A stretch of 64,000 nucleotides of DNA from Amphiscolops sp. MND2022. Its lineage: Eukaryota. The position numbers and the translations under genes were made by a program. The notes beneath the pieces were generated by a model. It did not search any database and had not been told where the DNA came from. It saw only the letters and a list, made by a program, of their open reading frames with translations. Below, in pieces: positions 5,721-29,094 of this stretch (positions within the stretch are counted from its first letter, which is position 1; every line of letters starts with the position of its first letter). The stretch spans positions 53,258,001-53,322,000 of the forward strand of contig OZ076412.1 of NCBI GenBank assembly GCA_964187785.1. The letters run 5' to 3'.

Positions 5721-7716
5721 ATAGAAAGAAATGAAGAAAAAGGTATTTATTGTGAATGTATATCGCTATTGAAAAGTTTAATTTTTCTTCGAAAAATTTT
5801 TAAAGCTACACTCTTTGAAAAAGTTTATAGTTGGATGCCAGCCAGCTTTCGGGAATGGAATATAAACGTTTCATGCCATTCAAACGTTTCATTGGTCCAA
5901 AAAACCCATTTCGTTCAAACAAGACTTCAATTGGATATCGTTCCAAGCTGTTCTAGGAAATTCTAGTTAACAATGCATTTTTACATTCCGAGACTTTGGA
6001 AAATGTTTGTTGCTCATATCGGGACCTATTTTCAATTCACATCAACTGAACATCATAATCCAGCAACAAACAGAGGCGTATCGCTTTTTCCAAATTCTTT
6101 ATTAGCACGAGGGGTAAGAAAAAGGTCATTATTGACAAAGATGTTGGTGTTTTTGAAACTCCTTTTGTTTTCAACAGTTGATGTTCAATGTCACGTCGGG
6201 AAAACCCGGCATTACGTGGTTTAGGACCAGTGGCACCAAGTTGTTTAACCTTAACAAGTTCTAGTGTCGTTTTTTCATTTTTTTACTTTTGCTTGTTCAG
6301 CTGCAAGAAAAACCTTTTAGAAGACGTCCTCTCCAGGTCTCTATTCCTCGCTCCACGATATGAGCGTGTGGCCTGCGCTCATTTTTGTTATGACAGAAGA
6401 CAAGTTCTGCAACAACTCGAAAATCACAATAAAAAACCGAAGAAAAATGTTTAGAAGTGAGCTTCGGTACCCAGGTAATGGTCCAGATGATGCAGCCACT
6501 CCCATCAACTCCTGGCCCTGTGTATTCGAGGTTATTATTGCTGTCTTCATTTTTCTCCCTCGAGTCCTGAATTGAGTGTTGAATTATTACTTGAATGGCT
6601 CATCTCAGTCGTTTTGGGTTTTCAACAATTGTTCTGTTTTTCAAGTTTTTCACAACAAACAATTAGTCCATATGATTTTCCCCACTCAGCCAACAAATAA
6701 GTTAATTGCTGCTGCGGACGCTCAAGAGGTTGGCGCTTCACTCTAGTGAACCTTTTTACTAGTAAAAAACGCTCCTGAGAAAATTTTCAAGGCCGTTAAA
6801 GACGCTATCCAACCTATGTGACTTAGCATTTAGGGATTTTTTGAGTACTCAGCAGAATCTGATGGCCCAAATAAGTAATCTTGGGCATGATTGAAGCAAG
6901 TCGCGCTTTTTCGGCTTTGTATTGATGTGTCAACAAACTCAATTGAAAACTTTTCATTGAAACGAGTCCCAAGCAGCACACAAAATAGTGTGTTGACATG
7001 GAGGGATCAAACCCTCCAACATATTGCACGCAAAGTAGTCGATCCGGGGTTCCAAAGGTGCTTCCATGAGCAAACTATCAAGTGAATTGCACGCAAGAAG
7101 TATGTCCAGCATAGGTTCAAACGTCTGAATCTCGTCTTGAAAGCATTTCATAACGACTGTCAGAGGTCTGTGTAGTTTAGAAACGTTCATCACATATCAT
7201 GAGAAATAAGGTGTACATCGTGAGTCGAAGCTCAAAAGTTTCATCAATTCCGATCAGAAACAAACAGGAAAGTACATTGAAAGAGCAGACTAATTCAAAA
7301 ATGTTCCTTTTTACAGTAACACCTCAAAACAATCATTCATTGAATGCGGTGTACATCGCGGTTCACATTTAGGCCAACTAATTTTTCTTATATTAGTGAA
7401 CGACTTTCTGAACTTCAGAAAGATAATTTCCGTATGTTTTGCTGCCTAGACCAGGTGTTCTGAACATATTCCACCACAGGTGACTGGGTAAGAATGAGTT
7501 AAGTTTCGCATTGATGAAACGCAGGAAGGAACTTTGCTAAATTGCGAGGACAACAGATTGTGTGACGTAGTTTTTGGCTGATGCTTCTGGATTTTAGGGC
7601 CATCCCACGTATTTGCATTTCAATTGCAGAGTGCACTTCGATGTTCTGTTTATGTTCATTTTGAATACTTTAGCTGGTATCGTTTACCCATAGCAGCTGA
7701 GGAAATCAATTCATCT

Positions 7717-9582
7717 TGTCGCAGGCTGCCGCCTGTGACGGTACGACAGTGACTACGTCGGCGAACGGACAAGAGTTTGTACCCGGAACACTACCCATCT
7801 ATTGATCGGGCTAAACTTTAAACTTAGGACTTTTACGTCATTTTGTTATACAATACATATTATGTTTGTTGATGTTGCTAGCTTTAATATATATACTTGC
7901 ACATGTAAAATTAATCTGTTAAAAGTTACATTTGAAGATCCAAATAATATAGTTGTGGTTTCAAAGATTGAAAGGCGCTTTGCAATTGTAAACGCAATAC
8001 GTGACAATGTAGCTGTATAGCGTAAAGGAAACGAGTTCAAATGGACGAAACTCTTATTCCGGAGACGTCACTTGAGCTCAGCATTTTAGCCAATCACATC
8101 GCTTCTCTTTGCTATATTAGTACTGCTTTGATTGTGTAGTGGCCGAGTACGGCCAATTGACTCAATATATATACTTCACTACACGCTTCAGTCAAATGGC
8201 CAATTCCGGCCACCTAGATGAAGTGAATTGTATACTCGTGTAATTAACCATATTAATCGGAAATTGCTATAAACGTATCCCTAATGATGAATGAAAGCCT
8301 CCACCCCGATCAATGAACCTAGTAGACCTAGTGCTAATTTAAAGGCCGAATAAAGCCTTTGCCCTCCCTTATTACGATGCTAGATTAATAAACCGGATTT
8401 GTCCATTTTCGGCCTTGTTAAAAGATGTGTTACTTTGATGGTGTAGTACTATTTTAAACAAGCTGATCATGTAATGTTTGATTTTGTTTCAACCTGTGTT
8501 AAATAATAAACACGTGGCAACGCGTGTCGTAATGACATTCCAAAAGGGATGCCTCTTACATTCCTTCAGTGAGTATTGGTATTTGTTGACCAGATAATGG
8601 TGATGATGTTTTCATAAAACAATGATTAGTGGTGCGGTTTGTGTACCTACCGAAGTGCTATTTATTTGATGTTGGATTCTCAGAAATTACCTGAATGTCG
8701 GGAATTTACCCGATTGGGGTTTCACTCAAATATGTGCTTTGAAGTGTTGATTACTTCACTAGTAATAATGATGATGTTTATCCCGTGACCTGTTAAGGCC
8801 GCGATCATGTAATATTCTCCTAATCAAAGAATCCGTGGAATGTGGCTGTCACCTTTTGAGAGTATATATACCCATGTTTCGAGAGGAGAAGTCATATTTT
8901 CCACATCCCTGCTTTGATAAAGATTGAATTGATATAACGATTCTCAACTAGTTTTCCGGTTTAAATAATTGAACTATTTGACCCGGTTCTGTCTTGATGC
9001 CTGTGACTAGGAAACAAAAGAAAGCGAGGAAATCGAGAGGGATAGAGATGCTCTCGGATATACAAAACTTAGACATCATGCTTGGTGAAAACCATTATAG
9101 CAGGAATGAGAGAGATGAGAGCTTTAATAGTAATCAGGCTAGGGGACCAAGAAGCGTCCCAAGAGATGAATTTGAAAACAATGGTGATTATAATTGCCTG
9201 GAAACAGGTAGTTTCGACCCCGGTACTAGTGCCAATCATGGCCAAAATTCAACAGGAGACAATTCAAGTGCCGAGATCAACAGGTTGTCAAGCGAGTTGA
9301 ATTCGAGATTGTCTAGGGAACTTGATGATATGATGAGTAGTGTTAATACCCAGATCCAGAGGGCAATCAATGATGCGATCAGTGGTCAAATTTTACCGCA
9401 AATCCAATCTGTCCTAAATGCCGGATCGGGACAATCGACACTAAATAAATGGAACGTTTCATCCGTGAGACCGGAAGTGAACTCCGAAGAAACCTATGGT
9501 GAGAAAGCCAAAAAAGGCAATAGAAGTGAGCAGCGCTTTGATTACCAAAATGGTAGCCAGCCTAACTTACGTGCCTACGACA
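7717..9582 (+). repeat. 5' LTR (1866 bp)
   Basis: Direct repeat of 22045-23911 with about 55 differences by hand count (~97%); begins TGTCGC and ends CGACA. Confidence 0.95.
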
Positions 9583-10715
9583 TGGTGACAGGAGACAACG
9601 AATCTCCTATCGAAGCTCCTGAGTTTCTCACGGGTCGAATGCCACCCAGAAACCATCTTCACAGTTCCCATGACAACTTCGACCCACTACTAGACACGAC
9701 GATCCCAGCACCCGAAAAGAATGCTCAGGCCCCTGAACTAGATCTCATCAACCAACTGGCTGATGCCCTGACAAGCATGCAGAATCGTCCTTCAGCCCAA
9801 CAGCTCACTATCCGCCCAGTCAACTCAAACACAATGACTTTCGATGGCAAAAGTGAGAAATTCGAACTGTTTGAGGATCTGTTCCACACGATGATCAAAA
9901 TCCAGCCTGAAATGTTTGAACAAATGAAAATTAATCATTTCCATTCGCTGTTAAAGAAAAACGCCTTACAAACATTCCGAAACATTAGCACAGCTAATAG
10001 ACAGACCCTTGAAGACGTATTAGTCATATTCCGACGAAAATACGTCAAACCTGAATCTCAAGCAACTGCCAAACACAGATGGCACCGTCTGGTGTTTGAT
10101 CCAAACACAACAAAACTACCAGATTTCGTTGAAGAATTGAATCAAGGTGCAGAAAAAGCGTTTAGAGACAACCCCCAAAAGATGATTGACAGCCTCCTAT
10201 ACGCAAAACTGCCACCGAAACTAAAAAGATCAGTTAATATGGCTAGATTAGAAAACAGCTCCTATGATGAAATCGTCGCTCACCTCGAGAGAGAGTTGGA
10301 GTTAAATGCTCTTGAAGAGTCCGACGACCTTCCAATGGCACCAATGACATCTTCAACCCCGAAAACCAAAACTGTTCCGTCCAAGGCACAGATGAGCGTC
10401 ATCACATGCAACTACTGCAAGAAAAAGGGCCATATGGTCAAGGATTGCGAAAAACTCAAAAAGAAAAAGGAGAAAGAAGCCCAACAAGGCAAACCGACCC
10501 AGAAAAAGACCTACCCCAAACGCAGTACTTGTGGCAAAACCAACCATCCTGAAGAGAGATGTTGGCAGGGAGCAGGTGCGCACCTTAAACCCAAACGCAC
10601 CAGACCAGAGGACGCGTCAGACAATGATCCTGACTCTAAGGTCTCCAAACCCCACTACAAGCCAACATCATCCAGTTCTCAAACTTCATCCAGCAAAGAT
10701 GACCAAAAAAACTAG
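8997..10715 (+). CDS. gag: Gag polyprotein (572 aa) beginning inside the LTR
   Basis: Intact ORF; capsid-like region (TFDGKSEKFELFEDLF...), zinc knuckle CNYCKKKGHMVKDC and a degenerate second knuckle STCGKTNHPEERC. Confidence 0.9.
   Translation: MPVTRKQKKARKSRGIEMLSDIQNLDIMLGENHYSRNERDESFNSNQARGPRSVPRDEFENNGDYNCLETGSFDPGTSANHGQNSTGDNSSAEINRLSSELNSRLSRELDDMMSSVNTQIQRAINDAISGQILPQIQSVLNAGSGQSTLNKWNVSSVRPEVNSEETYGEKAKKGNRSEQRFDYQNGSQPNLRAYDMVTGDNESPIEAPEFLTGRMPPRNHLHSSHDNFDPLLDTTIPAPEKNAQAPELDLINQLADALTSMQNRPSAQQLTIRPVNSNTMTFDGKSEKFELFEDLFHTMIKIQPEMFEQMKINHFHSLLKKNALQTFRNISTANRQTLEDVLVIFRRKYVKPESQATAKHRWHRLVFDPNTTKLPDFVEELNQGAEKAFRDNPQKMIDSLLYAKLPPKLKRSVNMARLENSSYDEIVAHLERELELNALEESDDLPMAPMTSSTPKTKTVPSKAQMSVITCNYCKKKGHMVKDCEKLKKKKEKEAQQGKPTQKKTYPKRSTCGKTNHPEERCWQGAGAHLKPKRTRPEDASDNDPDSKVSKPHYKPTSSSSQTSSSKDDQKN
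9583..9594 (+). promoter_or_regulatory. Primer-binding site TGGTGACAGGAG
   Basis: TGG immediately after the LTR-terminal CA; resembles the complement of a tRNA-Leu 3' end (TGGTGTCAGGAG, 11/12). tRNA identity is uncertain. Confidence 0.75.
10706..10712 (+). promoter_or_regulatory. Putative -1 ribosomal frameshift heptamer A AAA AAC
   Basis: In X XXY YYZ register directly before the gag TAG; the -1 frame is the frame of ORF 11048-11251 leading toward protease. Confidence 0.7.
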
Positions 10716-13700
10716 CTTCGCCACGACTCCAATATAACCAACTCGTCTCCGTCCGACAATACATCAAATCGGACCCTCCAACTAAAAACTTCCACAATTA
10801 CAAACAACAATTGATGGGCTACCCCTCTGTTGTCTGGCAGCAGCAGATGGATAAAGCTATAATCATTACTTACAACAACACCCATTTATTCCAAAAACCA
10901 ATTCCTGTCTAGGACCCGGACTATACAACTACCTTCCCTACCCGGTTCAGGCCCATTCCCCTGATCGATGATTACAATCCAATATACATCGACCCAGACT
11001 ATGGCAGAGATCCTTATTGGGACACTGAGATTTATAACCAGGACCTCTTGCAATTCCAGTATGTCCTAGATGACATTGAACACTACAACATAACAGTCCA
11101 CGAGAACCCTCTAATTACCCATAACAAGAAAACACGGGCACTAATTGAAAATTGGCAAATGAGCGATGGTACAATCCACCCAGTCTTCCCAAACCCGCTG
11201 GGAACCGAAAATCCTGAAAATATTGCCGAATCCATACAAAATTACTATTAGACGAGAAACAATCCAGAATGTACTCATAACCAAAGATGGTGAACCAGAC
11301 TGTATACCCCTGTCAACCAACATTATTCTCAAATGCAAGAAACGCATGCTTTATTTCCCAATGGACTTTGGGGAAGTGACCATTGATGGACTCATCGACA
11401 CTGGGGCACTGTCCAGTGCAATTCCTGAAATGGACCTCCGGAAAATCCGCCTTTCATTTCCACAATTTGTCATCCGGGAAGGTCCCCCTCCAAACTTCCA
11501 AATCATGGTCGCTAATGGGCAATTGGAAACTCCTAAGAGCACCATAGAGCTCAAATTCGAAGTTGGTGACATTGAGTTCCATCAAATCTTCATAGTAATG
11601 GAACATTTGACAGGACCAATCATTGGACTAATGTTCCTTCAGAGAAATCATACAGTCTTGGACATGAGACAAGGAATCCTGAATTTCCCGTTCTTTTCAA
11701 TGCAGCTTAAAACAGCTGACCACAAATATTCCAACGTACTAGAACCAATTCTCAACCCCACTAAGATAACAACTCCGCCAAATGATAGAGTCCAATATAG
11801 GACCAATTCCTTACTGTATCCTGAGAATGCGGTTACTGGGATTTTGCAACCGAGCGACCTCCTACATGAAGAAAGCGACATCACATTTTGCCCAGCCTTG
11901 GTCACTCTAAATGATGGCAGTATATCGATACCTGTGAATAATTTCACAGACCACCCTTATAAACTTAAAAAGGGACTTCATATTGCCAATTTCTTAGTCA
12001 TGACGCCAGAACAGATGAAATATGTCAAACCGGTAGACCCAGCTTCAACCTGGCACCTCTTGCAAAATGACCAAGAGCAGGCAGCCCATTATGTCAGCAG
12101 CCTCATCAAGACGAACAAAAATCCTCAGAATTCCAAAAATGACTGGTTCCCAACCCCAGAAAACCCTGGAAACCCCGAGGAACACACACCCATCCAGAAA
12201 AAAATCCTTCGAGAACTACAGGCCTTACAGGACCTGGAAACACTCGACCCCACCAAAGATGAAGAATCTCGTGCAAAATTCCTAGAAAACTTTGATTGGA
12301 AAGATTCCACCCTTACTCCTGAAGAAAAGGAGAAAATTGAGGAATTACTAGTAGAATTCCATGACATATTTGCACGACACAGATTTGACATAGGCATGAA
12401 CGAGGACTTCAAGGTGAAACTGACGCCTAAGGACGATTCCCCGGCCTATAGTCAAAGCCTTCCAGCACCTATCAATCTGAAGGAGGACATCCTAGTTGAA
12501 TTAGCCATGTTACACAAATATGGCATAATAACTACACTGCCATTTTCGAAATATGCAAGTCCAATATTCGCACAAAAGAAACCGAACGGAAAACTCAGAC
12601 TCTTGGTCGACTTGAGAAAAATCAACAACCTCATATCCGATGATTACATAAACAATAATCACCCCGTCAGTACTTAAGTCGACGCCGCCCAACACTTAGC
12701 GGGCAAAAAACTGTTCTGTAAACTAGACTGCTCACAGGCATACCACTGCTTGCCGATGGCTGACCAACAATCGATTGAAATGTTGGCCTTTAACTTCGCC
12801 AGTCGCACATTTGCATACAGACGTTTGGCACAAGGCCTTAGCCGGGCTCTGTCCACATTTTCGAGCTTTATGAGGGAATACCTTGACAAAGTCATCAAAG
12901 CGGACCAATGTGCCTAGTATGTGGACGATATCGGCATCGCAGCCAAGGATGCTGACCACCTCATAGCTAACCTGAGAGCAACATTCAAATGCATTCAGGA
13001 AGCAGGCCTTAAGTTGACAATGCACAAATGTCACTTTGGTGCAAAAGAATTTGATTTTCTCGGACGAACTATTACTCCACAAGGCGTCAAACCCCAGAAA
13101 CAGAATGTACAGAACTTTCCGGAAAAGACCAATTTCCCGAAGTCGAAAAAGGCTTTACAACGCTATTTGGGCTTCCTGAACTATAACAGGAATTATGTCC
13201 CAAGACTTTCAGAACACCTTGCTCCATTCTATAAGATGCTGAAAAGTGACGAGAAGGTCCCAGTATTGAAGGAATTAGTCCAGCAATTTGAAGAAATCAA
13301 TAAAGCACTAGACAAACGCTGCGATTTAGCCCTACAACAACCTATACCGAACAAGCAAATTGCACTAATGACTGATGCAAGTTTTGGTGCAGCCGGGAAC
13401 GCGGTCCTAATTGAAGACGACCCAAGCCAGAAATTGACGTCACTCAGAAAGTCCTATGCCACTGTAGCATATGGATCAAAAATCTTCACCCCGGCACAGA
13501 TCAAAATGTCAATTTATGCCAAAGAATTCCTTGCAATTTCTTTTGCATTCAAAGAATTTGGACACATCTTCTGGGGTGCGCCGAAACCGGTCATTATCCT
13601 TACAGATAACAAAGCTGTCACGCAATTTTTTCAAACGAAAATAATACCTCCAGCCCTGTGGAACGCGTGCGATTATGTGATTCAGTTCAATTTTGTCACA

Positions 13701-15901
13701 GCGCACATCCCAGGAGCACAAAATACAGCTGCCGACTATTTGTCCCGCCTGGAAGCGGACTCGAAGGACAAATTAGTCATCAACATCCGCGAAGATGTAC
13801 AAACGGTACCAATCGAAATAAATGTCCAATCAGAAGGGGTGTCACAGGAAGAACAAATCTTCTACACGAATGACGACGTTGAGACAGAGGAACAATACTG
13901 GGCAAGGAAAGAAGCAATCAGGAAAAATCCAGCTATTGAAGAGCCAACGGTTACAATACAAACTCTGTCAACAAATCTGGTCAAGCAACACCCTGATATA
14001 CAAGTCCGATTGAGGAAGGCGATTCAGATCATTATCGAGCAATCCAAAGATCCGGTACTACAACAATTGAAAGCAAAACTGCTTCATGAAGAGTATTCAG
14101 AAAATCTACTGCAACAGGAAGCTCGATACAGGCATTATGAAAACAATCTGGAACGAATTGTATTAAAGGACGAAATCCTGACAAGGCAATACTTTGATGA
14201 AACAGGGAACGTGGAATACCATCAAATTCTGCTCCCGCAACACTTACTCCAGGAATTGCTTCAGTCTCTTCATGGGACAGCGCACAAACACTCTGGTTTC
14301 TCAAAACTTTTGCAGGAAATTCGACAGAGGTATTACTACCCTAGCATGGCTAAACACGTCAAGAAATGGGTAGAAGGGTGTGAAGAAAGTGCAAGGGACA
14401 AACGAGTCCCCAACGCAACAATTACGCCTGAACTACTCAACTTGCCCGAATGGGACCTTGGACCTGAGGACGCCATGCAGATTGACCTATTGCCGAATCT
14501 TCCCCCAATTGGAGGATTTAAAAATGTCCTAACAGCAATTGACGTATTCTCTAGATATTTGTTCGCCTATCCTCTTACGGACGCATCGGCGATCAACGTA
14601 GCAAAAGCCCTCATTGACATTATGACTAAGCACGCATATTTACCGACAACACTTATTACTGACAAGGGTACTGCATTCACTTCCACGATCATTGCGGAAA
14701 TTACGCAAATTTCGGGGATAACACTCAAATGTGCAACAACAAAACACCCACAAACAATTGGGAATTTGCAGCGGACCCATGCCTCACTGAAAACAAATCT
14801 CAAAATGGCATGTGGAGAATACCGCCGACAATGGCACAAATACTTGCCACTAGCAGTACTAAATCACAACACTAGTTACCATACCAGCATCGGTTGTGAG
14901 CTGACGAGAGTATTTCATGGAAGAATTCCATATAATATCTTGGATCACAAGCTTGGAAACAATCCAAACGAGCAAGTCAACCCAACAACCGAATTTGCGG
15001 AAGATTTACAAAACCGGACAAAAATCCTGATTGACAAAACAAAGCATAACATTATGCAGTCATATATCAAGTACAAAGAGTATTAGGACCGCAAGGCAAA
15101 AGCCGCTCCATTAAGGGAGAATGATTACTGCTTTGTATTACAGCCGAAAGCGGATCATCAAGGATCAAAAATCCCATTCCGTGATTATAGGTGGGTCGGA
15201 CCATTTATAGTCCAAAAAGTTTTACCTAATGAAAAATATATTGTACGACGAATCAATACAAACAAGACTCAAATATTGCATCGAATTCGCCTTAAAAAGT
15301 TTGTCCCCAATCAAGCGCTTGAGGATAATTTCCGAGAACAGCGGTTACAGCCTGATGAAGAGATCGTCATTCCGCAAGACGACTTATATACCATAACGTG
15401 GGAAACAGATTTTGGCGAGCAGCTCATAACACGAGGACACGATCCTATTCCGTCTAGCTTGCCGAGTGCGGCAGAAGCGAATTCAAGTGACGCAAACGAG
15501 AATCAAGTGGATTACATAATCACGAGAGACGAATCAAATCACGCTGACTGTACGGCGCACAGCCGGAATGAACAATTAACAGATGACGTTACCAAAAGAA
15601 ATGAAGCTGATGAAGAGACTAGAAATGAAGAATCTGATTGGCCGAATCCGGCCGTTTCCCCAAAAAGTCAAGAAAAAGCTTTGCCGAAATCGGATGATGG
15701 ACTAAAAAACGATGAAAATTTTTCACAAAGAAATCCGATGAATGAAAATGATGTACAAAATTCTCCAAAAAGGGGAATGATATTATCGTGACCGAAATAT
15801 CGGAAAATGATACCAGAAAGGAAAGCCTGAGCCCTAGAGGAGGGAAGTATAATCTCAGGCCTAACCCTAACCCAAACTACTCAGAAGACTTTAGATACTA
15901 G
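10713..15901 (+). pseudogene. pol: Pol (aspartic protease, RT, RNase H, integrase), disrupted by stops and frameshifts
   Basis: LIDTGALSS (PR); YASPIFAQKKPNGKLRLLVDLRKIN and YVDD at ~12918 (RT); LMTDASFG, ILTDNK (RH); HGTAHKHSG, QIDLL, TDKGTAF (IN); WVGPFIVQKV C-terminal module; ends NPNPNYSEDFRY*. Confidence 0.95.
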
Positions 15902-17289
15902 AAAAGGCTAAATTCAGCTCACAAATGAGCCTGGAATTCTTTTTTCTTTTATCTTTTTCTCTTTACCAGTCCCAGGAAAGTATTTTTGAACAAATAATGG
16001 GACCTCAAAGGATCCCTTCCAGAAGAGAATAAATACGGGATCAAGAAACCAAAGAAACAAAATGACAAATACAACAGAAAAAAACAAAGTTTACAGTCTA
16101 GGTGTACATATATACATATGCACAATTAGTCTTTAGAGCTGCTAGTCGTAGCCTTCATCACTACGGAGGATGACCTGGACCGGGACTGGCTCCTTTCCAT
16201 ACGTCTCCGCTTGGTGTCGCTGGGCAGCCTAATAGCGGGAGCATCTCTCACGGAGGGAACGTCAGCTGCAGTAACATCCTTACAACTCGTTCCTGCCCCA
16301 GAAAGAACATAGCGATGGGAAGACTTGAAGGACTTGTAAATGGACGAACGCCCGGAGTTATCCACATATGTCCAGGGATAATATTCGGAACAGAGTCCAG
16401 ATTGCCCGAATGAAGGAGGAGAGCAGGGAGAATTTTTCAAGGCTGACATCAGTACAACAGAGAGCTAGGGAGTCAGAAACCTCAGATAGGTAACTTTGGC
16501 AAGGCAAAACTACATCCGATATTCGTGACTGAAGGCCTTGAGTGTCTACCTTCCCCATCGCCACAGCTGGATATCGGGAACTAGCAGAGGTTAAACACAG
16601 ACAGCTCAACTTGAAAAGGTAATAGAGGTGCTCATGCGTTTGCAGGAAATCAAGCCCCATAAGGAACTCTATGAGGTCACATGAGTCATCAGTAAGGCTC
16701 GGGTTGGAAGAATGGTAAGTTCGGAGATAATCCAGCAATGCCAGATACTCGTCCCTGCACGCAGCCTCGTTTGGCCCAGTGACCCAGGATCGCAACTGGA
16801 AAGTTGAATATAGGATGCCAAAGTGGCGGAGAGCCACCTCAGTAGGCCGTTTCATCATGATGTAAGGGTCAAAAGCTGCCAACCCCTTGACAATACCAGA
16901 GCTAAGACCAGTATGCTGGAGGACACCTCTGAGTAGGTGCTCGATGTACCTCTTGGCACTGGTTTTGAAGTCGGACTTGGCTGAGTCGGCTGTCTTATCA
17001 ATGACAGCCTTACTTGACTTCTTGTTGAAAAGTAATTCTGCAGCCTTCAGATTACTAGCAGCAGCCACCTTGTTGGTCATCTTGAGTCTGACTAGGAATT
17101 CGTCACCTTTCATGAATTTCCCGTCGCTAGTCCGAAAATCCAGCAAGAGAAACCAGGCACTCTCGAGAGGGACAGTGTCGTGCTCATACACCCGAAAGCA
17201 AAGCCGGCTGATGAACCTGCAAACCTCCCCGCAGAGGTAGAAGGTAGCGTCCCGTCTATGAGAAAGATTGACGGTAAAACTTGAGACGT

Positions 17290-17360
17290 CTGAAACACAA
17301 AACCAAAAGAGTCCATATCAGGACATGTGACCAATGCATACCGAAGCATAGCTTACTCAC
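17290..17360 (-). other. Intron 3 of the antisense gene (71 bp, phase 1)
   Basis: GACT|GTGAGT ... TTTTGTGTTTCAG|AC; joins ...QRLIND to YVSSFT, in frame with ORF 16358-17191. Confidence 0.8.
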
Positions 17361-17577
17361 AGTCGTTGATGAGACGCTGAAAGAATTCCAGTCTGACGGA
17401 GAAGAACTCATCGGATATCAAGGACCACTCAAAGCTCTGGACCTTGTTGTGCACACCCTGGTTCTCCTGTCGGCGGGAATGGACAGTCAGATATCGGAGG
17501 ACTGACTTCCATCGCTTGAGTATATCCCGACATAAATCCGGGAGTTTGTCTACTTCCAATTTGCTGGTAGTTATAGC

Positions 17578-17644
17578 CTAAATACAATGAGGTTATGAAA
17601 CTTGTCATACAATTGCATGTCCCTATCACTTCGTCCTACGTTAC
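17578..17644 (-). other. Intron 2 of the antisense gene (67 bp, phase 0)
   Basis: ATG|GTAACG ... TCATTGTATTTAG|GCT; joins ...AFCFTQM to AITTSKLEV in frame. Confidence 0.7.
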
Positions 17645-18157
17645 CATTTGAGTAAAGCAAAATGCACTAACTCGAGTGAGCTCAGATGATTCCAGGACCC
17701 AATCTTCAGTGACAGACCCGCCTAGGGAAACGAGGAGGCATTGTAGGACGGAGAACATGTCAATATGGCCAAACACACTGTAAGTGAACTTGTGCATCAG
17801 AAGTTGTAAATCAAGCTATTCAAATCGGAAGCAGCTCTGGATGCCTCGTGAGTAGAAATGATGCTGGTCAATTGTACGAATATAGTCCACAGAGCAGGCC
17901 GAGCAAGCAACAATGTCGGGATCGGTTGACACTACTGATATCAAACGTGACAGAGACCCCAGTTCACCGGTGAGGTCAGCAGCAGGAAGCGCACTACGAC
18001 AGATGAAAACCCTACAGAGTTTGGTCTCCCTCCAATAGCGCAGAAACATCAGACGACCTGTCCCACTGTCCTCAAGTTCGATGGAAAAATGCTGTGCTAA
18101 AGTCACTTGTTCAGCAATGTCCTCCATGACTCAGTTGAAAAAATGTTGGAATATAGC

Positions 18158-18310
18158 CTGAAATGCAGAATGGAGTCACTCACAAGATAATGCAATTTCA
18201 CCTATGTCAGCTCCCATACATTTATTTACGTGCATATATGCAATATTATACAAGTTCGTATGTTAAAGTGTAAGTAGGAATCGGAAACAGGACATTCGAA
18301 TTATACTTAC
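18158..18310 (-). other. Intron 1 of the antisense gene (153 bp, phase 0)
   Basis: ACA|GTAAGT ... TTCTGCATTTCAG|GCT; joins ...DWSEERIT to AIFQHFF. Confidence 0.75.
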
Positions 18311-21169
18311 TGTGATTCTCTCCTCACTCCAATCGAAATCGTGGAAGACTGTCTGGTAGTCAGTGAAGGACCCGACTCGTGACCATAAATTCCGGAGGAC
18401 GGTTAATTCCCCCTGCCTTTGGATGAAGTCCCCGATGAGGCAAATCTGAGTTTCAGCACGTGACTTGGGAGTTACTAAGGCTGTGGTGCTTCCTTGAGAT
18501 AGTCCCCATAGAAGGGGAACCTTTCTCCTACATCAACAAGTTCGGTGTGAATGAACTTTGGAAGTTCCAGCGCCAATTCAACTTTACTGAGGATCTTCCC
18601 GTTCTTCCCTCTAACCCTATGTTGGATTTTTCCTGTGACGGGGTCAATGCTCCTGAGATGCTCGTAGCGCCAACGCTGGTCCCTTCGGAGGTGTTTTTCG
18701 GTTCGATGGTGCCTAAGAACTTCGACCACCCCTTTCGTCTTCACAGAAAAGTTCTTTTTACACATGTGGCACCAGACCATGTGCGGATTATGAAGGGGAT
18801 CTGCGGGGCCAGATATGAAGGACCGAGTCCATCCGATCTTGGAGAAGAACTCTTCTCGCATGGGTACTCCTCGTCTCGGAGTGGTTTTGGGCTTGCGGGT
18901 CTTCTTGCCTGACTTTTTCCTTTGAAGTTTTTGCGTCGAAGGTTGCTCTCGTAGTTCTGACAATGTCGCATCAAGACTGCTTTGTCCTGTGGATTCTTCT
19001 CCTCTTCCAACTGATTCAAGGACTGTTGATGATTGCTGTGCAGGCCTGGTGTCCTCGATCGACGATCTTTTGAAACTGTTGGCTATCAGAGCCATTTCCC
19101 TTGAACTATCGCTATCCTCCGGCATTGATACACCCACGACTTCAAGCAATGCACTAAAGTCCCCACTCGCCTCTGAATCCTGTCCGGGATCGATGAGGAA
19201 TCCTTCGCAACTAGAGCTTCCTGCTTGTTGTGGTCTAGGTGTCTGGGCTCGGCTCTTGAATTGCCCAGTTGTCGAAGGGGCCGTGGCTAGCTTTCCTTTC
19301 ACTGCACCTATGACCATTTGCTCCATGGTTGTACAGGTCATGCTGATGGCCTCATCGGTCAGGACTCGTAACAAGTGGTAGATCTGAGGCTCAGTAAAAG
19401 CTACAGTTCTGTGGCCCACTGGGAAAGTGTAAGGGTCTTCGGCCTCGAAATACTGTTTTAAAATAGCCCTGCTGCGACCAGACAACTCTCTTAGTGGTTC
19501 CTCCTGTTGTCGGGCACCCATCGTTGACGTCCCAAGTGGGTCGTTAATGTAATTCTCAAGCTCAGTATCGGTGTCTTTTCCGGACTCAAGCTCTGAACAA
19601 ACTGGAATCGTTCCGTACAGTGGAGAAAGTCATCAAGTCCAGAAGCCGCTTCCGTGGTATCGATGTCGCTAGTCTCCTCGGTTACTCGAGCTTTCCCTTT
19701 GGGTAACGGGGGAGGACCACTGGTTGTTGATGAGGAGTCTTCCTCAATTTGCAAGAAAGAGGAATCTGGGACCACTCTTGATGTTAAAGCAGTGACTTGC
19801 GGCTCAGGGAACTCAGTGGAGGTGGTTACAGCGATTTGTAAGAGTGACTCAAGCTGGGATAAACTCGGCGACTCACCTAGATTCCGACCAGCCTGCGTTG
19901 GGGTGCTGGTTTTCCTAGGATCTAAGAGAGGGGGGGTGGACAAACCCCCCGTGCAAGAAGAAGCTACGGGTCTGCTTTCGTCAGTTTCCTCTGCCGGTGG
20001 CGATGCAGCAACTTGGCTTGCCTCCACTCGCTGTACCATCTACGTCGCGTAAGCAGTAACATCCACATTACTGTCAGTGCTGAGAGGGGATTCAGTAGTG
20101 TTCTGATCCTGGAATGTCACAAACCTGACGTGAGGAAGAAGAGTCGGGATCGGATCCTGAGCAAGATTGGCAGTGAGGACAGAAGACGGGTCAAATGTTT
20201 GTTCGGACTGTGCGTGGATGTTCACCGTGGTGTTGGTTGGAGTTTGATTTTCGTCTACATTCTGATTCTCTAAACAGAAAGAGATGAAATTTGGCGGTGA
20301 GCTTCCTTGAAAGAAATCCATTTTGCCGCATTAGAAAACTTCCGGAAGCGTCTTGAAAACTTGAATGAAGTGTGTTTGCACGCGTTCATTGACGGAAATA
20401 GGAAGCGTTTTATGAACAAATTTACCCCTGATCAAGTTAAATTAAGTTCAAATCAGAAACAAACCAACCTTCAGCGGATGACATTCTATGACGAGTCAAC
20501 TGTTGGGAACAAATCCTTGACTGGTTGCTGATAATTGGGAAGTCGGCTGGATCCGGCAGGAAGAGAGAGGAACCCTCCGACAGAGAGAGGTCTGCAGCTG
20601 AGTCAAAGGCGAGGAAAGACAGGTATTAACAAAGCAAATCCAAGTAAAAGATACAATTGGAATATAAATGGAATTAAGTTGGAACTGAGACTGGGTGAAA
20701 GAAATTAAAAGATTGGAGTTCGTGGCTGAAGAACATTACCAGACTAATATTATATGATTATCTACATATTTAAAATGTACATGGAGTCTGCCAGTGAAAT
20801 GTACAGAAAGTTTTCATTATTCACAGTTTGATTAGTTAGAGGCCGATTATGGCCGTTTGCCTTATTTTGTTTTACCGTTTTGTTCCGTTGTCCCAGTTCT
20901 TCTTAGTTAGAATTTTCGCCATTTTGAATTATTTTAGGTATTATTTTCGCCATTTTAATTATTCATTTTTCATTGTATCAATGAGTAACTCTGATTGGCT
21001 GAAGCCATTTTGGGTAGATTCAGTAACGCAAGCCGTTAATCACCAGCAAACAACCTGTTAATTACCCACTTGAAGTGAAGTTATTTGTTGATAACAACTT
21101 GAAGATGCTTCTCTCACCCACTTGAGAAATGATATTAGGGGGTCTTACCAACTACAATTCAAAGAAGCG

Positions 21170-22133
21170 ATGCCGCTAAAAATTCCATTCAGGAAAGTTT
21201 ACGACGACTCGGGACGAGAGGATCTACTGCCGAGTAGAAAACCCGGAAAAAAGTCCCAACTCGGCATACGACGGAATTTCAGTAGATTCATTCTGCCTCA
21301 AATTATTCAGCAATCAGTCGTCTTACCAGCTTCGAAAATCGCTAAAAAACTCATAATGAGCAAGTTTAACCTCTCAGGAAAATTGTTTGACTTTGAAGAA
21401 AATGATTTTGATAACTCCGATAAATCAGTAATCTACATATCCAGTAGTGAAGATGAGTCCTCAGACTGGGAAACCGATTGTTCGACGGACACCGAGCAAC
21501 TGATAGCCCGGATTGAAAGAGAAGTTACTTCCAGCCCAATGCTATTCGGGGGCAGGATAATGACCATGGATGAACCCGAAGAGGCGAAAGCAGAGCCAAG
21601 TACGTCTCAAGTGGAAGAAGGAGTGACACCGAAACTAGGCCTTAAATACTTCGATAAAGAAATGTGCTATGCCCCACCAAGGAAATTTGAAAAGAAGCGC
21701 ATAGAGCTCTGTAACACAATAATGCCCGTCCTATAATCGCCAATGTCTCCCCCGGAGCACGAGAGGGGTCCAAGTGTGGACACCCCCTTCTCCAGCCGAC
21801 CTCGAGTAACTTTCATGCGTCCTACCACGGCAAAATACAGTACCCTATCAAAATGTCAGTGAGGTACGTTATACAGGATGCATGGTTTGCGGCCGTTCAG
21901 TGGACTCAATCAAGGACGAAAAGCTGAAATGGTATATGCAACGATCTACACCAAGAGATGAGCCTGAATACATCACGAGACTCAGAAAGGAGGCATATGA
22001 AAATGGACTTAATGCTGGCTGTTTTCTTTTCATCACACCCGCAGTGTCGCAGGCTGCCGCCTGTGACGGTACGACAGTGACTACGTCGGCGAACGGACAA
22101 GAGTTTGTACCCGGAACACTACCCATCTATTGA
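21170..22133 (+). pseudogene. Sense accessory ORF (ORF3), one nonsense codon plus one frameshift, extending 89 nt into the 3' LTR
   Basis: ORFs 21122-21736 and 21882-22133 link through MSKFNLSGKLFDFEEND...VIYISSSEDESSD...YTGCMVCGRSVDSIKDEKLKWY...TPAVSQAAACDGTT...TLPIY*. Confidence 0.6.
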
Positions 22134-23911
22134 TCGGGCTAAACTTTAAACTTAGGACTTCTACGTCATTTTGTTATACAATACATACTATGTTTGTTGA
22201 TGTTGCTAGCTTCAATATATATACTTGCACATGTAAAATTAGTCTGTTAAAAGTTACATTTGAAGGTCCAAATAATATAGTTGTTGTTTCAAAGATTGAA
22301 AGGCGCTTTGCAATTGTAAACGTAATACGTGACAATGTAGCTGTATAGCGTAAAGGAAACGAGTTCAAGTGGACGAAACTCTTATTCCGGAGACGTCACT
22401 TGAGCTCAGCATTTTAGCCAATCACATCGCTTCTCTTTGCTATTTTAGTACTGCTTTGATTGTGTAGTGGCCGAGTACGGCCAGTTGACTCAATATATAT
22501 ACTTCACTACACGCTTCAGTCAAATGGCCAATTGCGGCCACCTAGATGAAGTGAATTGTATGCTAGTGTAATTAACCATATTAATCGGAAATTGCTATAA
22601 ATGTATCCCCAATGATGAATGAAAGCCTCCACCCCGATCAATGAACCTAGTAGACCTACTACTAATTTAAAGGCCGAATAAGGCCTTTGCCCTCCCTTAT
22701 TACGATGCTAGATTAATAAACCGGATTTGTCTATTTTCGGCTTTGACAAAAAGGTGTGTTACTTTGATGGTGTAGTACTATTTTAAACAAGCTGATCATG
22801 TAATATTTGATTTTGTTTCAACCTGTGTTAAATAATAAACACGTGGCAACGCGTGTCGTAATGACATTTCAAAAGGGATGCCTCTTACATTCCTTCAGTG
22901 AGTATTGGTATTTGTTGACCAGATAATGGTGATGATGTTTTCATAAAACAATGCTTAGTGGTGCGGTTTGTGTACCTACCGAAGTGCTATTTATTTGATG
23001 TTGGATTCTCAGAAATTACCTGAATGTCGGGATTTTACCCGATTGGGAATTCACTCAAATATGTGCTTTGAAGTGTTAATTACTTCACTAGTAATGATGA
23101 TGATGTTTATCCCGTGACCTGTTAAGGCCGTGATCATGTAATATTCTCTTAATCAAAGAATCCGTGGAATGTGGCTGTCACCTTTTGAGAGTATATATAC
23201 CCATGTTTCGAGAGGAGAAGTCATGTTTTCCACATCCCTGCTTTGATAAAGATTGAATTGATATAACGATTCTCAACTAGTTTTCCGGTTTAAATAATTG
23301 AACTATTTGACCCGGTTCTGTCTTGATGCCTGTGACTAGGAAACAAAAGAAAGCGAGGAAATCGAGAGGGGTAGAGATGCTCTCGGATATAGAAAACTTA
23401 GACATCATGCTTGGTGAAAACCATTATAGCAGGAAGGAGAGAGATGAGAGCGTTAATAGTTATCAGGCTAGGGGACCAAGAAGAGTCCCAAAATATGAAT
23501 TTGAAAACAATGGTGAATATAATTGCCTGGAAACAGGTAGTTTCGACCCCGGTACTAGTGCCAATCATGACCAAAATTCAACAGGAGACAATTCAAGTGC
23601 CGAGATCAACCGGTTGTCAAGTGAGTTGAATTCGAGATTGTCTAGGGAACTTGATGATATGATAAGTAGTGTTAATACCCAGATCCAGAGGGCAATCAAT
23701 GATGCGATCAGTGGTCATATTTTACCGCAAATCCAATCTGTCCTAAATGCCGGATCGGGACAATCGACACTAAATAAATGGAACGTTTCGTCCGAGAGAC
23801 CGGAAGTGAACTCCGAAGAAACCTATGGTGAGAAAGCCAAAAAAAGCAATAGAAGTGAGCAGCGCTTTGATTACGAAAATGATAGCCGGCCTAACTTACG
23901 TGCTTACGACA
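22045..23911 (+). repeat. 3' LTR (1867 bp)
   Basis: Copy of 7717-9582, followed by the TSD CATCT. Confidence 0.95.
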
Positions 23912-24061
23912 CATCTACATCTTCTTTTTTCCTGGTTGCCGGTAAGGATTATGTTTTGCTCAAGCGACCTTATTTTTGTTGATTTGATACTGGTGGAGAA
24001 GTGCATAAATCACTAGAGGCTCCAATCACTGACGTGATTCATTAGACAGGTGTACAAGGTA

Positions 24062-24785
24062 TGTACCGTCCAGCAAAAGACGTCACAAAAATTCGATGAA
24101 ATGTGCGATAGCAAAATTTCTAAATCAAGATGGCCGACCTGACAGGTACTGGAAATTGAAAAGGATGATGAAAAATAATGCAAAGACACCCCCTCCAGCC
24201 CGAGAGAGAACACACCGCCACAGAAGTATCCCCGATATCGCTGTGTTGTGCCATCTCCCTCGGAAGACGTCCCAGCTGCCAGCAGAGCCCGAAGAATGGC
24301 CCAAGAGATGAAGAAACTCAGAAGTTTGCATATTTTGCATGTGCCACCTAGTAGGTCCAAGACCAAGGCTCTCTGACATTGACGCCTGATGTTTCTTTAG
24401 CCTGTTGTACCATATTTGTGGTTTTTGTAGAAGTTTGGTGATGTTATAGCCCTTATTTCAGCCAGTTTAGACGTTATTCACTAATTAAATGTACTTTGGC
24501 TAAACCCCTGTTTTTGGACCTCGGAGGTATTTAGGAACACGCAGGAGCCTTAGGAATTGTTTTTACAGGCTTGTGGGACGTGTCCGGACTTTGAGAGCGC
24601 CGGCACGTCGCCTCGGAGCTCTAATAGAGGAGACTCCTTAGACAATTGGAAAAGTCCCTTTTAGGAGACCAATTTGGGAATAAAAACAAATGCCTAGGGC
24701 TGTAGTAACACAACCGTCTCCTGTCTAAGCACCCTAGGCATTGTCCCACTTCTATGATGTACTCTGCTAGGTGGCTGACGTTACA
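24062..24785 (+). repeat. 5' LTR of element 2 (724 bp)
   Basis: Direct repeat of 28370-29094. Confidence 0.9.
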
Positions 24786-27335: not shown

Positions 27336-28685
27336 ATGAGTGACGAAACGACTTTTCAAACAATCTAACGTCTGTAGCCAAGCAGGCTTCCCAAAAAATC
27401 AATATTCGTTGCTCGATTCATGCCTAGGGTGAACCTCGGTTCTCGGTACCACAGTTGCGTGAACCATATCAATGTGAAAACACCGGACAAGAGATTGGCC
27501 CGGGGAGTACCTGTAGTCTCCCGAGAGAAAACAACACCAAGCATGATAAAATACCTGGAGCTTCGAAGCTCTGAGAACTGCTTGGCCAGCGGCCGTGCTT
27601 TTAAAACTCCACTGATTGCTCTGGAACGCATTTTTATTGCCAAAGACTGTTTTCATTGTTTTAATGATCTGCCATACCTGATTTATTAACTTCCGTTGGT
27701 CATAGTCTATCATCGCTATCGACATAATCATCCTCTTGAGAAGCAGTTTATTTCCATCTTTTACATATACACTGGTGCCTATTTTACCTACACAACACCT
27801 TTATCTGAGCGTACACTGCAAACTCAATAGATTGAATTGGTCCTCACTTTTGGTGACATTTTTGATTTATGGGATCAATTTTTCCGCTGGTGCTATTTTT
27901 TGTGCAGTTTCTGTTGGCCAAGAACTACGACCGTTTTGCAAGACCACAGCCATTACTTTTATTTTTCGCTTTTCAAGTGCTATCGTGCATTTTGTTCAAC
28001 CTTACCTATCAGGTAGGACCCAGGTTGATGTCAATCCTGTTGTGATGTGTGCTTTTTATACAGATGCATTAAAATAAAGTGATAGAAATTTTAGGTGCGA
28101 AATTAAAAATTTGAAAACGTTTCCAATAAAATGCTGTGTGTCTAAAGTTGCTAATGCTATTCCAGTGCTAGAACCCATTATTGATGTGGAATCTGAGGAG
28201 GCCTGCTAGGCTAGCTGCAAAAACTCATCTTTTTGGGCAATGATATTTTGGGCAACGACTTTCATTTAGATTCCTGAAGCTGTTGCAACAGTATCACTGG
28301 ATGATGGCAACCGAGACGTGAACATCCACTCTCGTTTGTCGAGGACGACAAACTACGGCCCGGGGAGGATGTAACGTCCAGCAAAAGACGTCACAAAAAT
28401 TCGATGAAATGTGCGATAGCAAAATTTCTAAATCAAGATGGCCGACCTGACAGGTATTGGAAATTGAAAAGGATGATGGAAAATAATGCAAAGGAACCCC
28501 CACCCAGCCCGAGGGAGAACACACCACCACAGAAGTATCCCCGAAATCGCCGTGTTGTGCCATCTCCCTCGGAAGACGTCCCAGCTGCCAGCAGAACCCG
28601 ACGAATGGCCCAAGAGATGAAGAAACTCAGAAGTTTGCATATTTTGCATGTGCCACCTAGTAGGTCCAAGACCAAGGCTCGCTGA
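27336..28685 (+). pseudogene. Decayed accessory ORF of element 2 running into U3; product unknown
   Basis: ATG at 27336 after a pyrimidine tract and CAG; broken plus-strand frames 27420-27689 and 27736-28077; frame open 28305-28685 across the PPT/LTR junction. Confidence 0.4.
28362..28369 (+). promoter_or_regulatory. Polypurine tract GGGGAGGA of element 2
   Basis: Purine run directly abutting TGTAAC of the 3' LTR. Confidence 0.7.
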
Positions 28686-29094
28686 CACTGACGCCTGATG
28701 TTTCTTTAGCCTGTTGTACCATATTTGTGGTTTTTCTAGATGTTTGGTGATGTTATAGCCCTTATTTCAGCCAGTTTAGATGTTATTCACTAATTAAATG
28801 TACTTTGGCTAAACCCCTGTTTTTGGACCTCGGAGGTATGTAGGAACACGCAGGAGCATTAGGAATTGTTTTTACAGGCTTGTGGGACGTGTCCGGACTT
28901 TGAGAGCGCCGGCACGTCGCCTCGGAGCTCTAATAGAGGAGACTCCTTAGACAATTGGAAAAGTCCCTTTTAGGAGACCATTTTGGGAATAAAAACTAAT
29001 GCCTAGGGCTGTAGTAACAAAACGGTCTCCTGTCTACGCACCCTAGGCATTGTCCCACTTCTATGATGTACTCTGCTAGGTGGCTGACGTTACA
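28370..29094 (+). repeat. 3' LTR of element 2 (725 bp)
   Basis: Direct repeat of 24062-24785. Confidence 0.9.

Follow-up and report, generated by a model that had tools for sequence, protein, structure and literature searches.

The window, as we call the whole stretch of 64,000 nucleotides analyzed here, contains a complete 16.2-kb Ty3/Gypsy-type element, and between its pol gene and its 3' LTR lies an antisense gene with three introns whose product appears to descend from a hAT-like transposase, an ancestry supported by predicted fold and domain order and weakly by language-model features. The DDE triad of this protein is lost throughout its family, and the loss is not the decay of one copy. 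The explanation that we favor, at a probability of roughly 0.45, is that a Ty3/Gypsy element has retained a hAT-type transposase gene whose product acts as a non-catalytic DNA-binding oligomer regulating its own element.

The boundaries of the carrier element are set by its LTRs and a 5-bp target duplication. The LTRs are 97% identical (1811/1866 aligned bases), and the features expected of Ty3/Gypsy were found: TG...CA LTR ends, a short target-site duplication, and gag followed by PR-RT-RH-IN (Table 1). The segment adjoining the 5' LTR is presumably the primer-binding site, judged by its position and the rule that such sites start with TGG. As for a polypurine tract, the 20 nt upstream of position 22045, the only stretch inspected, hold no purine run. 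The gag product matched the Pfam profiles DUF1759 (E 3.4e-5) and zf-CCHC (E 0.008), neither of which reaches its curated cut-off. The spacer between the divergent antisense gene and ORF3 is a candidate promoter region. No second copy of the antisense gene was detected in the window, as 0/487 tblastn matches fall outside 15.8–20.5 kb.

Table 1. Features of the carrier element and of its antisense gene, in window coordinates
Feature	Positions	Strand	Remarks
Target-site duplication, left copy (CATCT)	7712..7716	+	5 bp, identical to 23912-23916
5' LTR	7717..9582	+	1866 nt, TG...CA ends, includes gag start; alignment to 3' LTR
gag with CCHC knuckle	8997..10715	+	ATG within LTR; profile matches DUF1759, zf-CCHC
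Putative primer-binding site	9583..9594	+	adjoins LTR, begins TGG
pol, Ty3/Gypsy order (protease, RT, RNase H, integrase)	10913..15901	+	split over several frames here
Antisense hAT-derived gene (predicted ancestry)	16126..20321	-	about 1,100-1,300 codons, broken in window copy
Low-complexity tail with basic, NLS-like patch	16126..16260	-	
C-terminal hAT-like motif (LTSASSRYP and following)	16514..16594	-	motif register only
Intron 3	17290..17360	-	71 nt, GT-AG
Intron 2	17578..17671	-	94 nt, GT-AG, GC 0.36
hAT CxxH position	17822..17833	-	Phe instead of His
Strand 4 end, second-Asp position	17897..17905	-	
Strand 1 of RNase H-like core (FSIELEDS)	18065..18088	-	
Intron 1	18158..18310	-	153 nt, GT-AG, GC 0.35
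BED-like zinc finger	18691..18831	-	C-x2-C-x16-H-x5-H, complete
N-terminal low-complexity region	18861..20321	-	first part acidic
Spacer separating divergent antisense gene and ORF3	20322..21169	.	AT-rich (GC 0.38)
ORF3, no assigned identity	21170..22133	+	broken, end within 3' LTR
3' LTR	22045..23911	+	1867 nt, pairs with 5' LTR
Target-site duplication, right copy (CATCT)	23912..23916	+	

A preliminary description of this DNA had placed the gene at 16560..18850. The motifs do lie inside that span, but the gene extends further, from about 20321 to 16126. Its 5' end is uncertain, with ATG 20321 and ATG 20039 as the two candidate starts. The N-terminal region includes a small conserved block (~19488-19310) and a basic patch ahead of the finger, and at the other end a basic patch is found within the last 75 residues in 62/64 long relatives. 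The catalytic motifs are spread over different exons. The splice-site footprint recurs in relatives (23/27, 43/45, and 51/57 motif-matched rows), and intron 1 is missing from relative P0254. In the window copy, the reading frame is interrupted by three stops and by two or more frameshifts.

Relatives are numerous: 234 were found for the last exon and 115 for the core exon, and 369 clusters were obtained at 50% identity. We examined the best 120 of the 234 last-exon matches and the best 150 of the 369 cluster matches. Open frames of at least 370 residues occur in 64 of the best 120 last-exon relatives; full-length relatives of more than 560 residues were absent from all 2433 candidates, which is weak evidence. 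One relative, P0001, matches the window past the end of the gene; the match reaches 15964, which leaves 63 nt to the stop of pol. The preliminary description had called the gene a captured transposase, and the hAT-like ancestry implied by that term is upheld by fold and domain order, but capture itself is only partly shown, because the element context consists of the window copy and the 3' flank shared by this one relative.

The zinc finger proved as complete as had been stated from the letters, with its ligands on the minus strand at Cys 18771 and 18762 and His 18711 and 18693 and a Trp upstream at 18831. It fits the BED signature CX2CXnHX3-5(H/C) with upstream aromatics, as that pattern is given in PMC7471704, and it is complete in the window copy and in 3/4 relatives covering it. 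In the model of a relative it folds into two strands and a helix. Pfam zf-BED matched neither the window finger nor the relatives.

To place the protein by structure, we used a model of P0254, which shares about 30% identity with the protein of the window (mean pLDDT 66). The model comprises a zinc finger, helices, and an RNase H-like core. Foldseek ranked Hermes chains 1–5 (best E 7e-4, probability 0.98). In the VIA comparison, the Hermes match was the longest of 50 rows (116 residues, model 167-290 on Hermes 143-268, Z 6.1, rmsd 3.3); by Z-score, Hermes stood at rank 28/50, amid many RNase H and actin-like folds, all with Z <8. Sequence comparison returned no such likeness: Pfam hAT and BED profiles matched 0/8 window pieces and 0/87, 0/73, and 0/25 relatives, and searches of PDB sequences gave no Hermes match. 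The Atlas language model put last-exon features at 0.91 to PF05699 clusters, a match rated weak (recognition 2137 < 2300), with C-terminal features, also weakly, near the Dimer_Tnp_hAT and FAM200-GTF2IRD2 clusters; it gave no usable match for the core exon. The last exon itself was modeled weakly (pLDDT 56) and had no fold match, although a hAT fold may be present there. Prediction of a complex of core exon and last exon, run without alignments, scored 0.00, and we give it no weight. Around the gene we saw no clear flanking inverted repeat; a search for hAT TIRs with an 8-bp TSD gave 63 chance 11-nt inverted pairs (≤2 mismatches), 0/63 of them with a TSD within 2 mismatches. The old hAT ends could have decayed beyond recognition.

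We then mapped the catalytic residues by register, allowing two alternative registers two residues apart; column counts take in only rows having a residue there. Both deviant motifs of the preliminary description were recovered on the minus strand, FSIELEDS exactly at 18088-18065 and LTSASSRYP at 16594-16568. The first-Asp position, D180 in Hermes, reads Glu in both registers of the window protein, at 18073-18071 in one and at 18079-18077 in the other. Among the matches listed, the first-Asp position is Glu in 140/162 rows and the other member of this strand-1 pair, two residues upstream, is Glu in 151/162, both occurring together in 124/149. Neither candidate column has Asp in more than 2/162 rows of the matches listed, and among those compared jointly Asp occupies the position in 2/149 and 1/149 rows for the two registers. 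At the second-Asp position, D248 in Hermes, the window has Ala (17899-17897) or, in the alternative register, Cys (17905-17903). The column holds Gly in 213, Glu in 6, and Asp in 3 of 236 rows of the matches listed, and in the alternative register an acid was found in 0/149. An Asp of the STDPD stretch (Asp 138/230) was considered as second Asp and dropped because in the model this stretch precedes strand 4 instead of following it. The catalytic-Glu position (16567-16562) is Ala/Val in the window; among the matches listed, taken in the motif register, Glu was found in 0/118 rows in either candidate column, and Asp in 36/118. The CxxH motif, whose His is H268 in Hermes, was present in its strict form in 0/223 of the rows listed, with His at +3 in 1/223.

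Together, these counts bear out the claim that catalytic residues are lost, and extend it to the whole family and to the second Asp and CxxH, two positions outside the motifs first described; the part that needs amending is the first position, where a Glu is conserved, as is another two residues upstream. Relatives do not restore the triad, since 0/149 of the rows listed have both Asp in either register and 0/118 have the Glu. The surrounding protein is conserved. Columns neighboring the lost positions stay 80–95% conserved, and the last exon has a mean modal frequency of 0.67–0.70. Among the matches listed, an Arg at 16525-16523 is kept in 107/116 rows and an Asp at 16516-16514 in 114/115. 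The Arg lies 14 residues past the Glu position, the same spacing as that of the TIR-contacting R586 after E572 in the published account of Hermes. For that enzyme, substitutions of E572 are described as killing every step, while D248A retains hairpinning and joining in Mn (PMC2533014); in Kat1, DDE and CxxH mutants are described as losing cleavage or hairpinning (PMC4763223). We therefore consider it very probable that transposase-type cutting is absent. The term non-catalytic, used from the start for this protein, agrees with a triad gone across the family, but we keep it as likely and short of proof in view of the two conserved Glu on core strand 1.

We propose the following scheme. In an ancestral Ty3/Gypsy element, a hAT-type transposase would have arrived in reverse orientation; it would then have lost the ends of its transposon along with catalysis, and persisted as an accessory gene. 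Because the gene is antisense, its introns would not be spliced from the genomic RNA and would thus persist through reverse transcription; for the same reason, expression would depend on a promoter of the gene itself, located on the DNA copy. The protein may enter the nucleus via its basic patches, oligomerize on the former transposase scaffold, and use its finger, together with the end-binding surface that it has kept, to contact short motifs in the LTR or spacer of its element. The long acidic low-complexity N terminus would recruit host factors, so that element transcription is raised or protected, as by a transactivator or an anti-silencing factor. We regard it as probable that the protein works for the element as a DNA-binding accessory; that transcription control is its main job we put forward tentatively, at a little under even odds.

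A search of the LTR and spacer for a target of such binding brought out no enriched motif. The word CGCCATNTT occurs 2 times against 1.8 expected, the ZBED1-like half-site TGTCG 6 times per LTR against about 3 expected, which we judged not enriched, and k-mer scans returned mainly AT-rich words.

An unlikely alternative, and the one that survives best, is that the non-catalytic protein serves integration, either by binding the LTR ends of the cDNA or by linking integrase with selected sites in chromatin or DNA, thus acting as a tether, an end protector, or a nuclear-import aid. Retention of the entire end-binding scaffold beyond the finger (core fold, R586-like Arg, conserved last exon) is consistent with this role, as is the report that full-length Hermes grips element ends by several BED domains (PMC10368747). 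However, the long acidic N terminus seems better suited to transcription, the protein would come from a spliced message of its own and a packaging link is not evident, TGTCG as an end motif shows no enrichment within the LTR, and a single insertion site is in view.

Quite improbable, in our judgment, is a self-limiting or decoy function, in which the protein represses its own element or poisons an active hAT through mixed oligomers or occupancy of its ends. A dead oligomeric scaffold with DNA binding predicted from its intact finger would suit such a function, and antisense transcripts may regulate by themselves, as noted in PMC7264820. No direct evidence speaks for it, however, and mixed oligomers with a hAT are unlikely because the divergence is too deep for any profile to detect.

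Still less probable is a remodeled enzyme in which the strand-1 Glu pair binds metal and acts as a nickase or nuclease, with the Gly at the second-Asp position making room and the late Asp perhaps taking part. The frequency of both Glu and the near-invariance of the Asp at 16516-16514 among the matches listed argue for it, together with the Mn-dependent activities of Hermes D248A. Against it, the strand-1 Glu are found in just 36 and 29 of the 43 most distant rows, an acid is missing at the Glu position in 82/118 and the CxxH His in 222/223 of the matches listed, and the Hermes E572 mutants are inactive throughout. An equally poor prospect is a passenger with no role for the retrotransposon, either the remnant of a nested hAT insertion or an independent mobile family that happened to land in the LTR element, which the broken window copy and an LTR linkage demonstrated in one copy only would allow, but which is opposed by a loss limited to catalytic positions within conserved columns, by hundreds of diverged open frames, by the lack of a TIR/TSD pair, and by the sequence that P0001 shares beyond the gene end.

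Extra antisense genes are a common finding between pol and the 3' LTR, and their origin and function are open questions. Retention of a dead transposase as a regulator, our preferred reading, would mean that a transposase was domesticated by another transposon and not by the host, and would give an antisense accessory gene a traceable origin. It predicts a protein that is nuclear, oligomeric, and bound to the DNA of its element, without cutting it. With hundreds of diverged lineages, a comparison of finger and target across subfamilies could offer a natural test of element-specific regulation. More broadly, it seems to us somewhat better than an even bet that an animal Ty3/Gypsy radiation has domesticated a dead hAT scaffold, kept antisense with its introns and binding the element's own DNA as a switch-on factor, a shield, or an integration guide, in hundreds of co-diversified lineages. 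In listings of the open-access literature, we found no report of an LTR element with a dead hAT transposase.

Among known proteins, DAYSLEEPER is a domesticated hAT-derived regulator. The closest structural comparison is with Hermes and other hAT transposases (PDB entries 8edg and 4d1q), in which a finger is likewise followed by a helical region, an RNase H-like core, and a helical insertion; the window protein differs in lacking the DDE triad and the CxxH His and in being about twice as long, its gene has neither TIR nor 8-bp TSD and lies within an LTR element, and sequence similarity is undetected. In position and orientation the gene resembles Retand TRP28 and Grande gene23 (PMC7264820; PMC11963269), and for the Grande antisense gene these sources describe its own promoter, a nuclear location, and a proposed regulatory role. 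Those genes are from plants or fungi and their origin is not established, whereas ours has a predicted transposase fold and three introns; Transposase_28 (PF04195) matched neither the window pieces nor the relatives in Pfam. For the known antisense accessory genes, an origin from an inserted TE is given as unsupported in PMC7264820, as they have no similarity to other TEs; the present family would supply such an origin because its transposase fold is recognizable.

The plant mobile domain (PMD) is found both in a retrotransposon (Gypsy) and in a DNA transposon (MULE), with a speculated anti-silencing role (PMC5418596), but it is not a transposase, and the MULE PMDs are traced there to host genes, whereas here the core enzyme itself would have been taken. 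VANC, the anti-silencing protein of VANDAL elements, is likewise an element-encoded accessory protein that acts on its own family via short motifs (PMC6719617), as we predict here. VANC targets DNA methylation, however, and an anti-methylation role of this kind is disfavored because CpG is not depleted in host DNA beyond the element (o/e 0.93–0.94); we also found no target motif array, and homology is not claimed. The ORF3 enzymes of rotifer LTR elements (a DEDDy exonuclease and a GDSL esterase) are also animal genes captured after pol, but they are reported with intact catalytic residues (PMC5408684), whereas those of the window gene are lost and the gene is antisense. Finally, ZBED1/DREF provides precedent for hAT-derived transcription factors, in which the hAT scaffold and BED finger serve DNA binding, self-association, and gene control (PMC7471704), functions that we predict here. 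ZBED1/DREF are host genes, whereas the window gene is multi-copy and retrotransposon-borne, and its recruiter would be another mobile element; the enzyme of a cut-and-paste transposon would then have been taken over as a regulator by a copy-and-paste retrotransposon.

The antisense gene, on the minus strand between pol and the 3′ LTR of a Ty3/Gypsy-type element, was modeled with three introns, which are AT-richer than the exons (GC of 0.35–0.41 vs 0.48–0.50). Relatives read unspliced show the expected splice footprint residue in 23/27, 43/45, and 51/57 motif-matched rows. In P0254, a distant relative, intron 1 is absent and the sequence continues collinearly through its position. We infer that the introns persist owing to the antisense orientation. 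The window copy is broken, with in-frame stops at 20042–20040, 18133–18131, and 17818–17816 and frame changes near 18510 and near 16414; near 19.6 kb the reading frame changes once more, through either a frameshift or a fourth intron, as a phase-compatible but GC-rich GT-AG pair is present. A search around the gene found no TIRs accompanied by an 8-bp duplication (0/63 chance pairs). Amid low-complexity sequence, an N-terminal block (19488–19310, minus strand) is conserved with P0254 and is a candidate protein-interaction module; a conserved helix plus β-hairpin directly follows the zinc finger (18690–18560, minus strand).

Features located in the window (window positions)
Feature	Position	Strand	Remarks
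LTR pair, 1,867-nt direct repeat	7717-9582 and 22045-23911		TG...CA ends
Antisense gene	~20321 (or 20039) to 16126	-	between pol stop (15901) and ORF3
Zinc finger C-x2-C-x16-H-x5-H	18771-18691	-	plus Trp at 18831
Three GT-AG introns	18310-18158; 17671-17578; 17360-17290	-	frames joined in phase
FSIELEDS	18088-18065	-	core exon
LTSASSRYP	16594-16568	-	last exon
730-nt direct repeat	24057-24785 and 28366-29094		96% identity, 4.3 kb apart; possibly LTRs of another element
BEL/Pao-type LTR element, decayed	38807-44297	-	Peptidase_A17, DUF1759, weak rve; bounded on either side by 57-nt repeats; contains nothing related to the antisense gene
Tandem array, 184-nt unit	47241-47906		~three to four copies
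Host gene pieces with WAC, WSD, PHD domains	52327-61648	-	ACF1/BAZ1-like

The preliminary description had taken the gene for a hAT-like transposase. Sequence methods were silent on this ancestry: no Pfam hAT or BED family was found in 8 window pieces or in 87 last-exon, 73 core-exon, and 25 distant relatives, and a PDB sequence search gave no match. Structure backed it. The model of P0254 residues 267–612 (alignment of 127 rows, pLDDT 66), a protein 29–33% identical to the window protein over the regions compared, has a finger of two strands plus a helix and next a helical region, followed by three strands and a helix and finally by one more strand and helix. In Foldseek, the top match of this model was full-length Hermes (8edg), with E 7e-4 and a probability of 0.98; no other match had E ≤0.001, and ranks 1–5 were all Hermes chains. 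In VIA-align, Hermes ranked 28th of 50 (Z 6.1, rmsd 3.3), surrounded by integrases, Argonautes, and actin-like folds, and its match was the longest of the 50 (116 residues, model 167–290 on Hermes 143–268). The last exon gave a poor fold prediction, and that model matched no structure; in the Atlas this exon falls near clusters of Dimer_Tnp_hAT and FAM200-GTF2IRD2, with a score of 0.91 that the Atlas grades as weak evidence. Together, these data make hAT ancestry highly probable.

Because the structure tools gave ranges rather than residue pairs, we mapped the Hermes DDE triad (D180/D248/E572) by register, tallying both candidate registers in an alignment of 253 rows (252 relatives). By the Hermes offset, D180 corresponds to model residue 204, flanked by Glu-203 and Glu-205; the hAT motif as first quoted favors residue 205 as the first-Asp position, and integrase D64 numbering with the VIA-align integrase ranges favors residue 203. 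The two candidate columns are Glu in 151/162 and 140/162 rows. After strand 4, Gly occupies the second-Asp position in 213/236 rows (Glu in 6, Asp in 3); the other register has Cys, Ile, or Val there. Among the 149 rows with both motifs, no row combines the two Asp residues, whichever register is used, and six carry an acid of any kind at each of the two sites; the His of the CxxH motif (H268) is retained in only 1 of 223 rows. The catalytic-Glu column (16567–16565), placed by counting back 14 residues from a conserved Arg (107/116), as R586 from E572, contains no Glu in 118 rows (Asp 36, Pro 34, Ala 24, other 24). The neighboring column is Val in 113/118, and Glu falls anywhere within seven residues around the position in 10/118 rows.

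According to excerpts of PMC2533014, Hermes E572 substitutions stopped every step and D248A left some activity in Mn; according to passages of PMC4763223, Kat1 DDE and CxxH mutants lost cleavage or hairpinning. The motifs FSIELEDS and LTSASSRYP, from which loss of catalysis had been proposed, are present exactly in the window, and the loss proved family-wide, with no DDE triad restored by relatives. As none of the four catalytic features looked for was found, the product is, judged from its sequence, not an active hAT transposase, with the caveat that both strand-1 glutamates occur together in 124/149 rows (one in 36 and the other in 29 of the 43 most distant rows) and that an Asp at 16516–16514 is near-invariant (114/115). 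In contrast, the finger was kept, as the same description had held: its ligands are complete in the window copy and in three of the four relatives covering the region, the first Cys being lost in the fourth. The window finger matches the BED signature in the passage of PMC7471704 that quotes it.

The last exon has 234 relatives and the core exon 115, all ENA-sourced, with 369 clusters at 50% identity. Open frames of at least 370 residues occur in 64 of the best 120 of the 234 last-exon relatives, and 62 of these 64 have a basic patch at the C-terminal end. The catalytic columns appear to have been lost selectively amid strong conservation, unlike neutral decay. The pattern is real and family-wide, and decay does not explain it.

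The carrier is a complete 16.2-kb Ty3/Gypsy-type element, since the LTR pair (1811/1866 aligned bases identical) encloses gag and a pol ordered protease-RT-RNase H-integrase (Pfam). Both outer flanks bear an identical 5-bp sequence, and a PBS-like stretch starting TGG follows the first LTR. Its gag-pol is split over several frames, and directly before the 3′ LTR (22025–22044) the sequence is pyrimidine-rich instead of forming a polypurine tract. The gag ATG lies ~585 nt inside the LTR, and its frame continues across the LTR end and PBS (8997–9594), so that the 3′ LTR (23326–23911) duplicates the first ~195 gag codons. ORF3, a broken third ORF (21170–22133, plus strand), terminates within the 3′ LTR; it contains a CxxC pair as well as an acidic stretch and gave only sub-threshold Pfam matches. 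CpG observed/expected at 9583–20321 is 0.78 in gag-pol and 0.68 in the antisense gene, vs 0.93–0.95 in LTRs and flanks. The spacer at 20903–20956 has a 23-nt repeat in two close copies, each containing CGCCATTTT, which we take to be a YY1-like motif; the frequency of such motifs across the window is not above chance. Capture of the gene by the element is partly supported, by the window copy and by P0001, a relative sharing its 3′ flank, whose frame matches the window as far as 15964, leaving 63 nt up to the pol stop; direct linkage evidence is thin and confined to these two. A family unable to cut would need another way to multiply, which carriage by a retrotransposon would supply.

We tentatively favor (probability roughly 0.45) a DNA-binding protein that would act in the nucleus as an oligomer, promoting or protecting transcription of its own element. 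The finger and the old end-binding surface would provide recognition, the dead core assembly, and the acidic low-complexity N terminus recruitment. Target-motif searches in the LTR and spacer found none, and the flanking DNA is without CpG depletion, which lowers the odds of an anti-methylation role relative to other forms of this function. An integration tether is unlikely, and a repressor or decoy more doubtful still. A remodelled nuclease, for which the retained Glu pair and near-invariant Asp would speak, has a slim chance. That the gene is a passenger is just as improbable, given the selective loss of catalytic columns.

The protein may work like host-domesticated hAT regulators such as ZBED1/DREF (PMC7471704). 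By position, the gene resembles the plant antisense accessory ORFs in extracts of PMC7264820 and PMC11963269, but its product is not a TRP28 protein. PMD (PMC5418596), VANC (PMC6719617), and the rotifer ORF3 enzymes (PMC5408684), as partial texts present them, are analogies only. Searches of an open-access library showed no report of an LTR element with a dead hAT transposase. Domestication of hAT transposases by hosts is known; what is new here is that the recruiter of an apparently dead transposase would be a retrotransposon.
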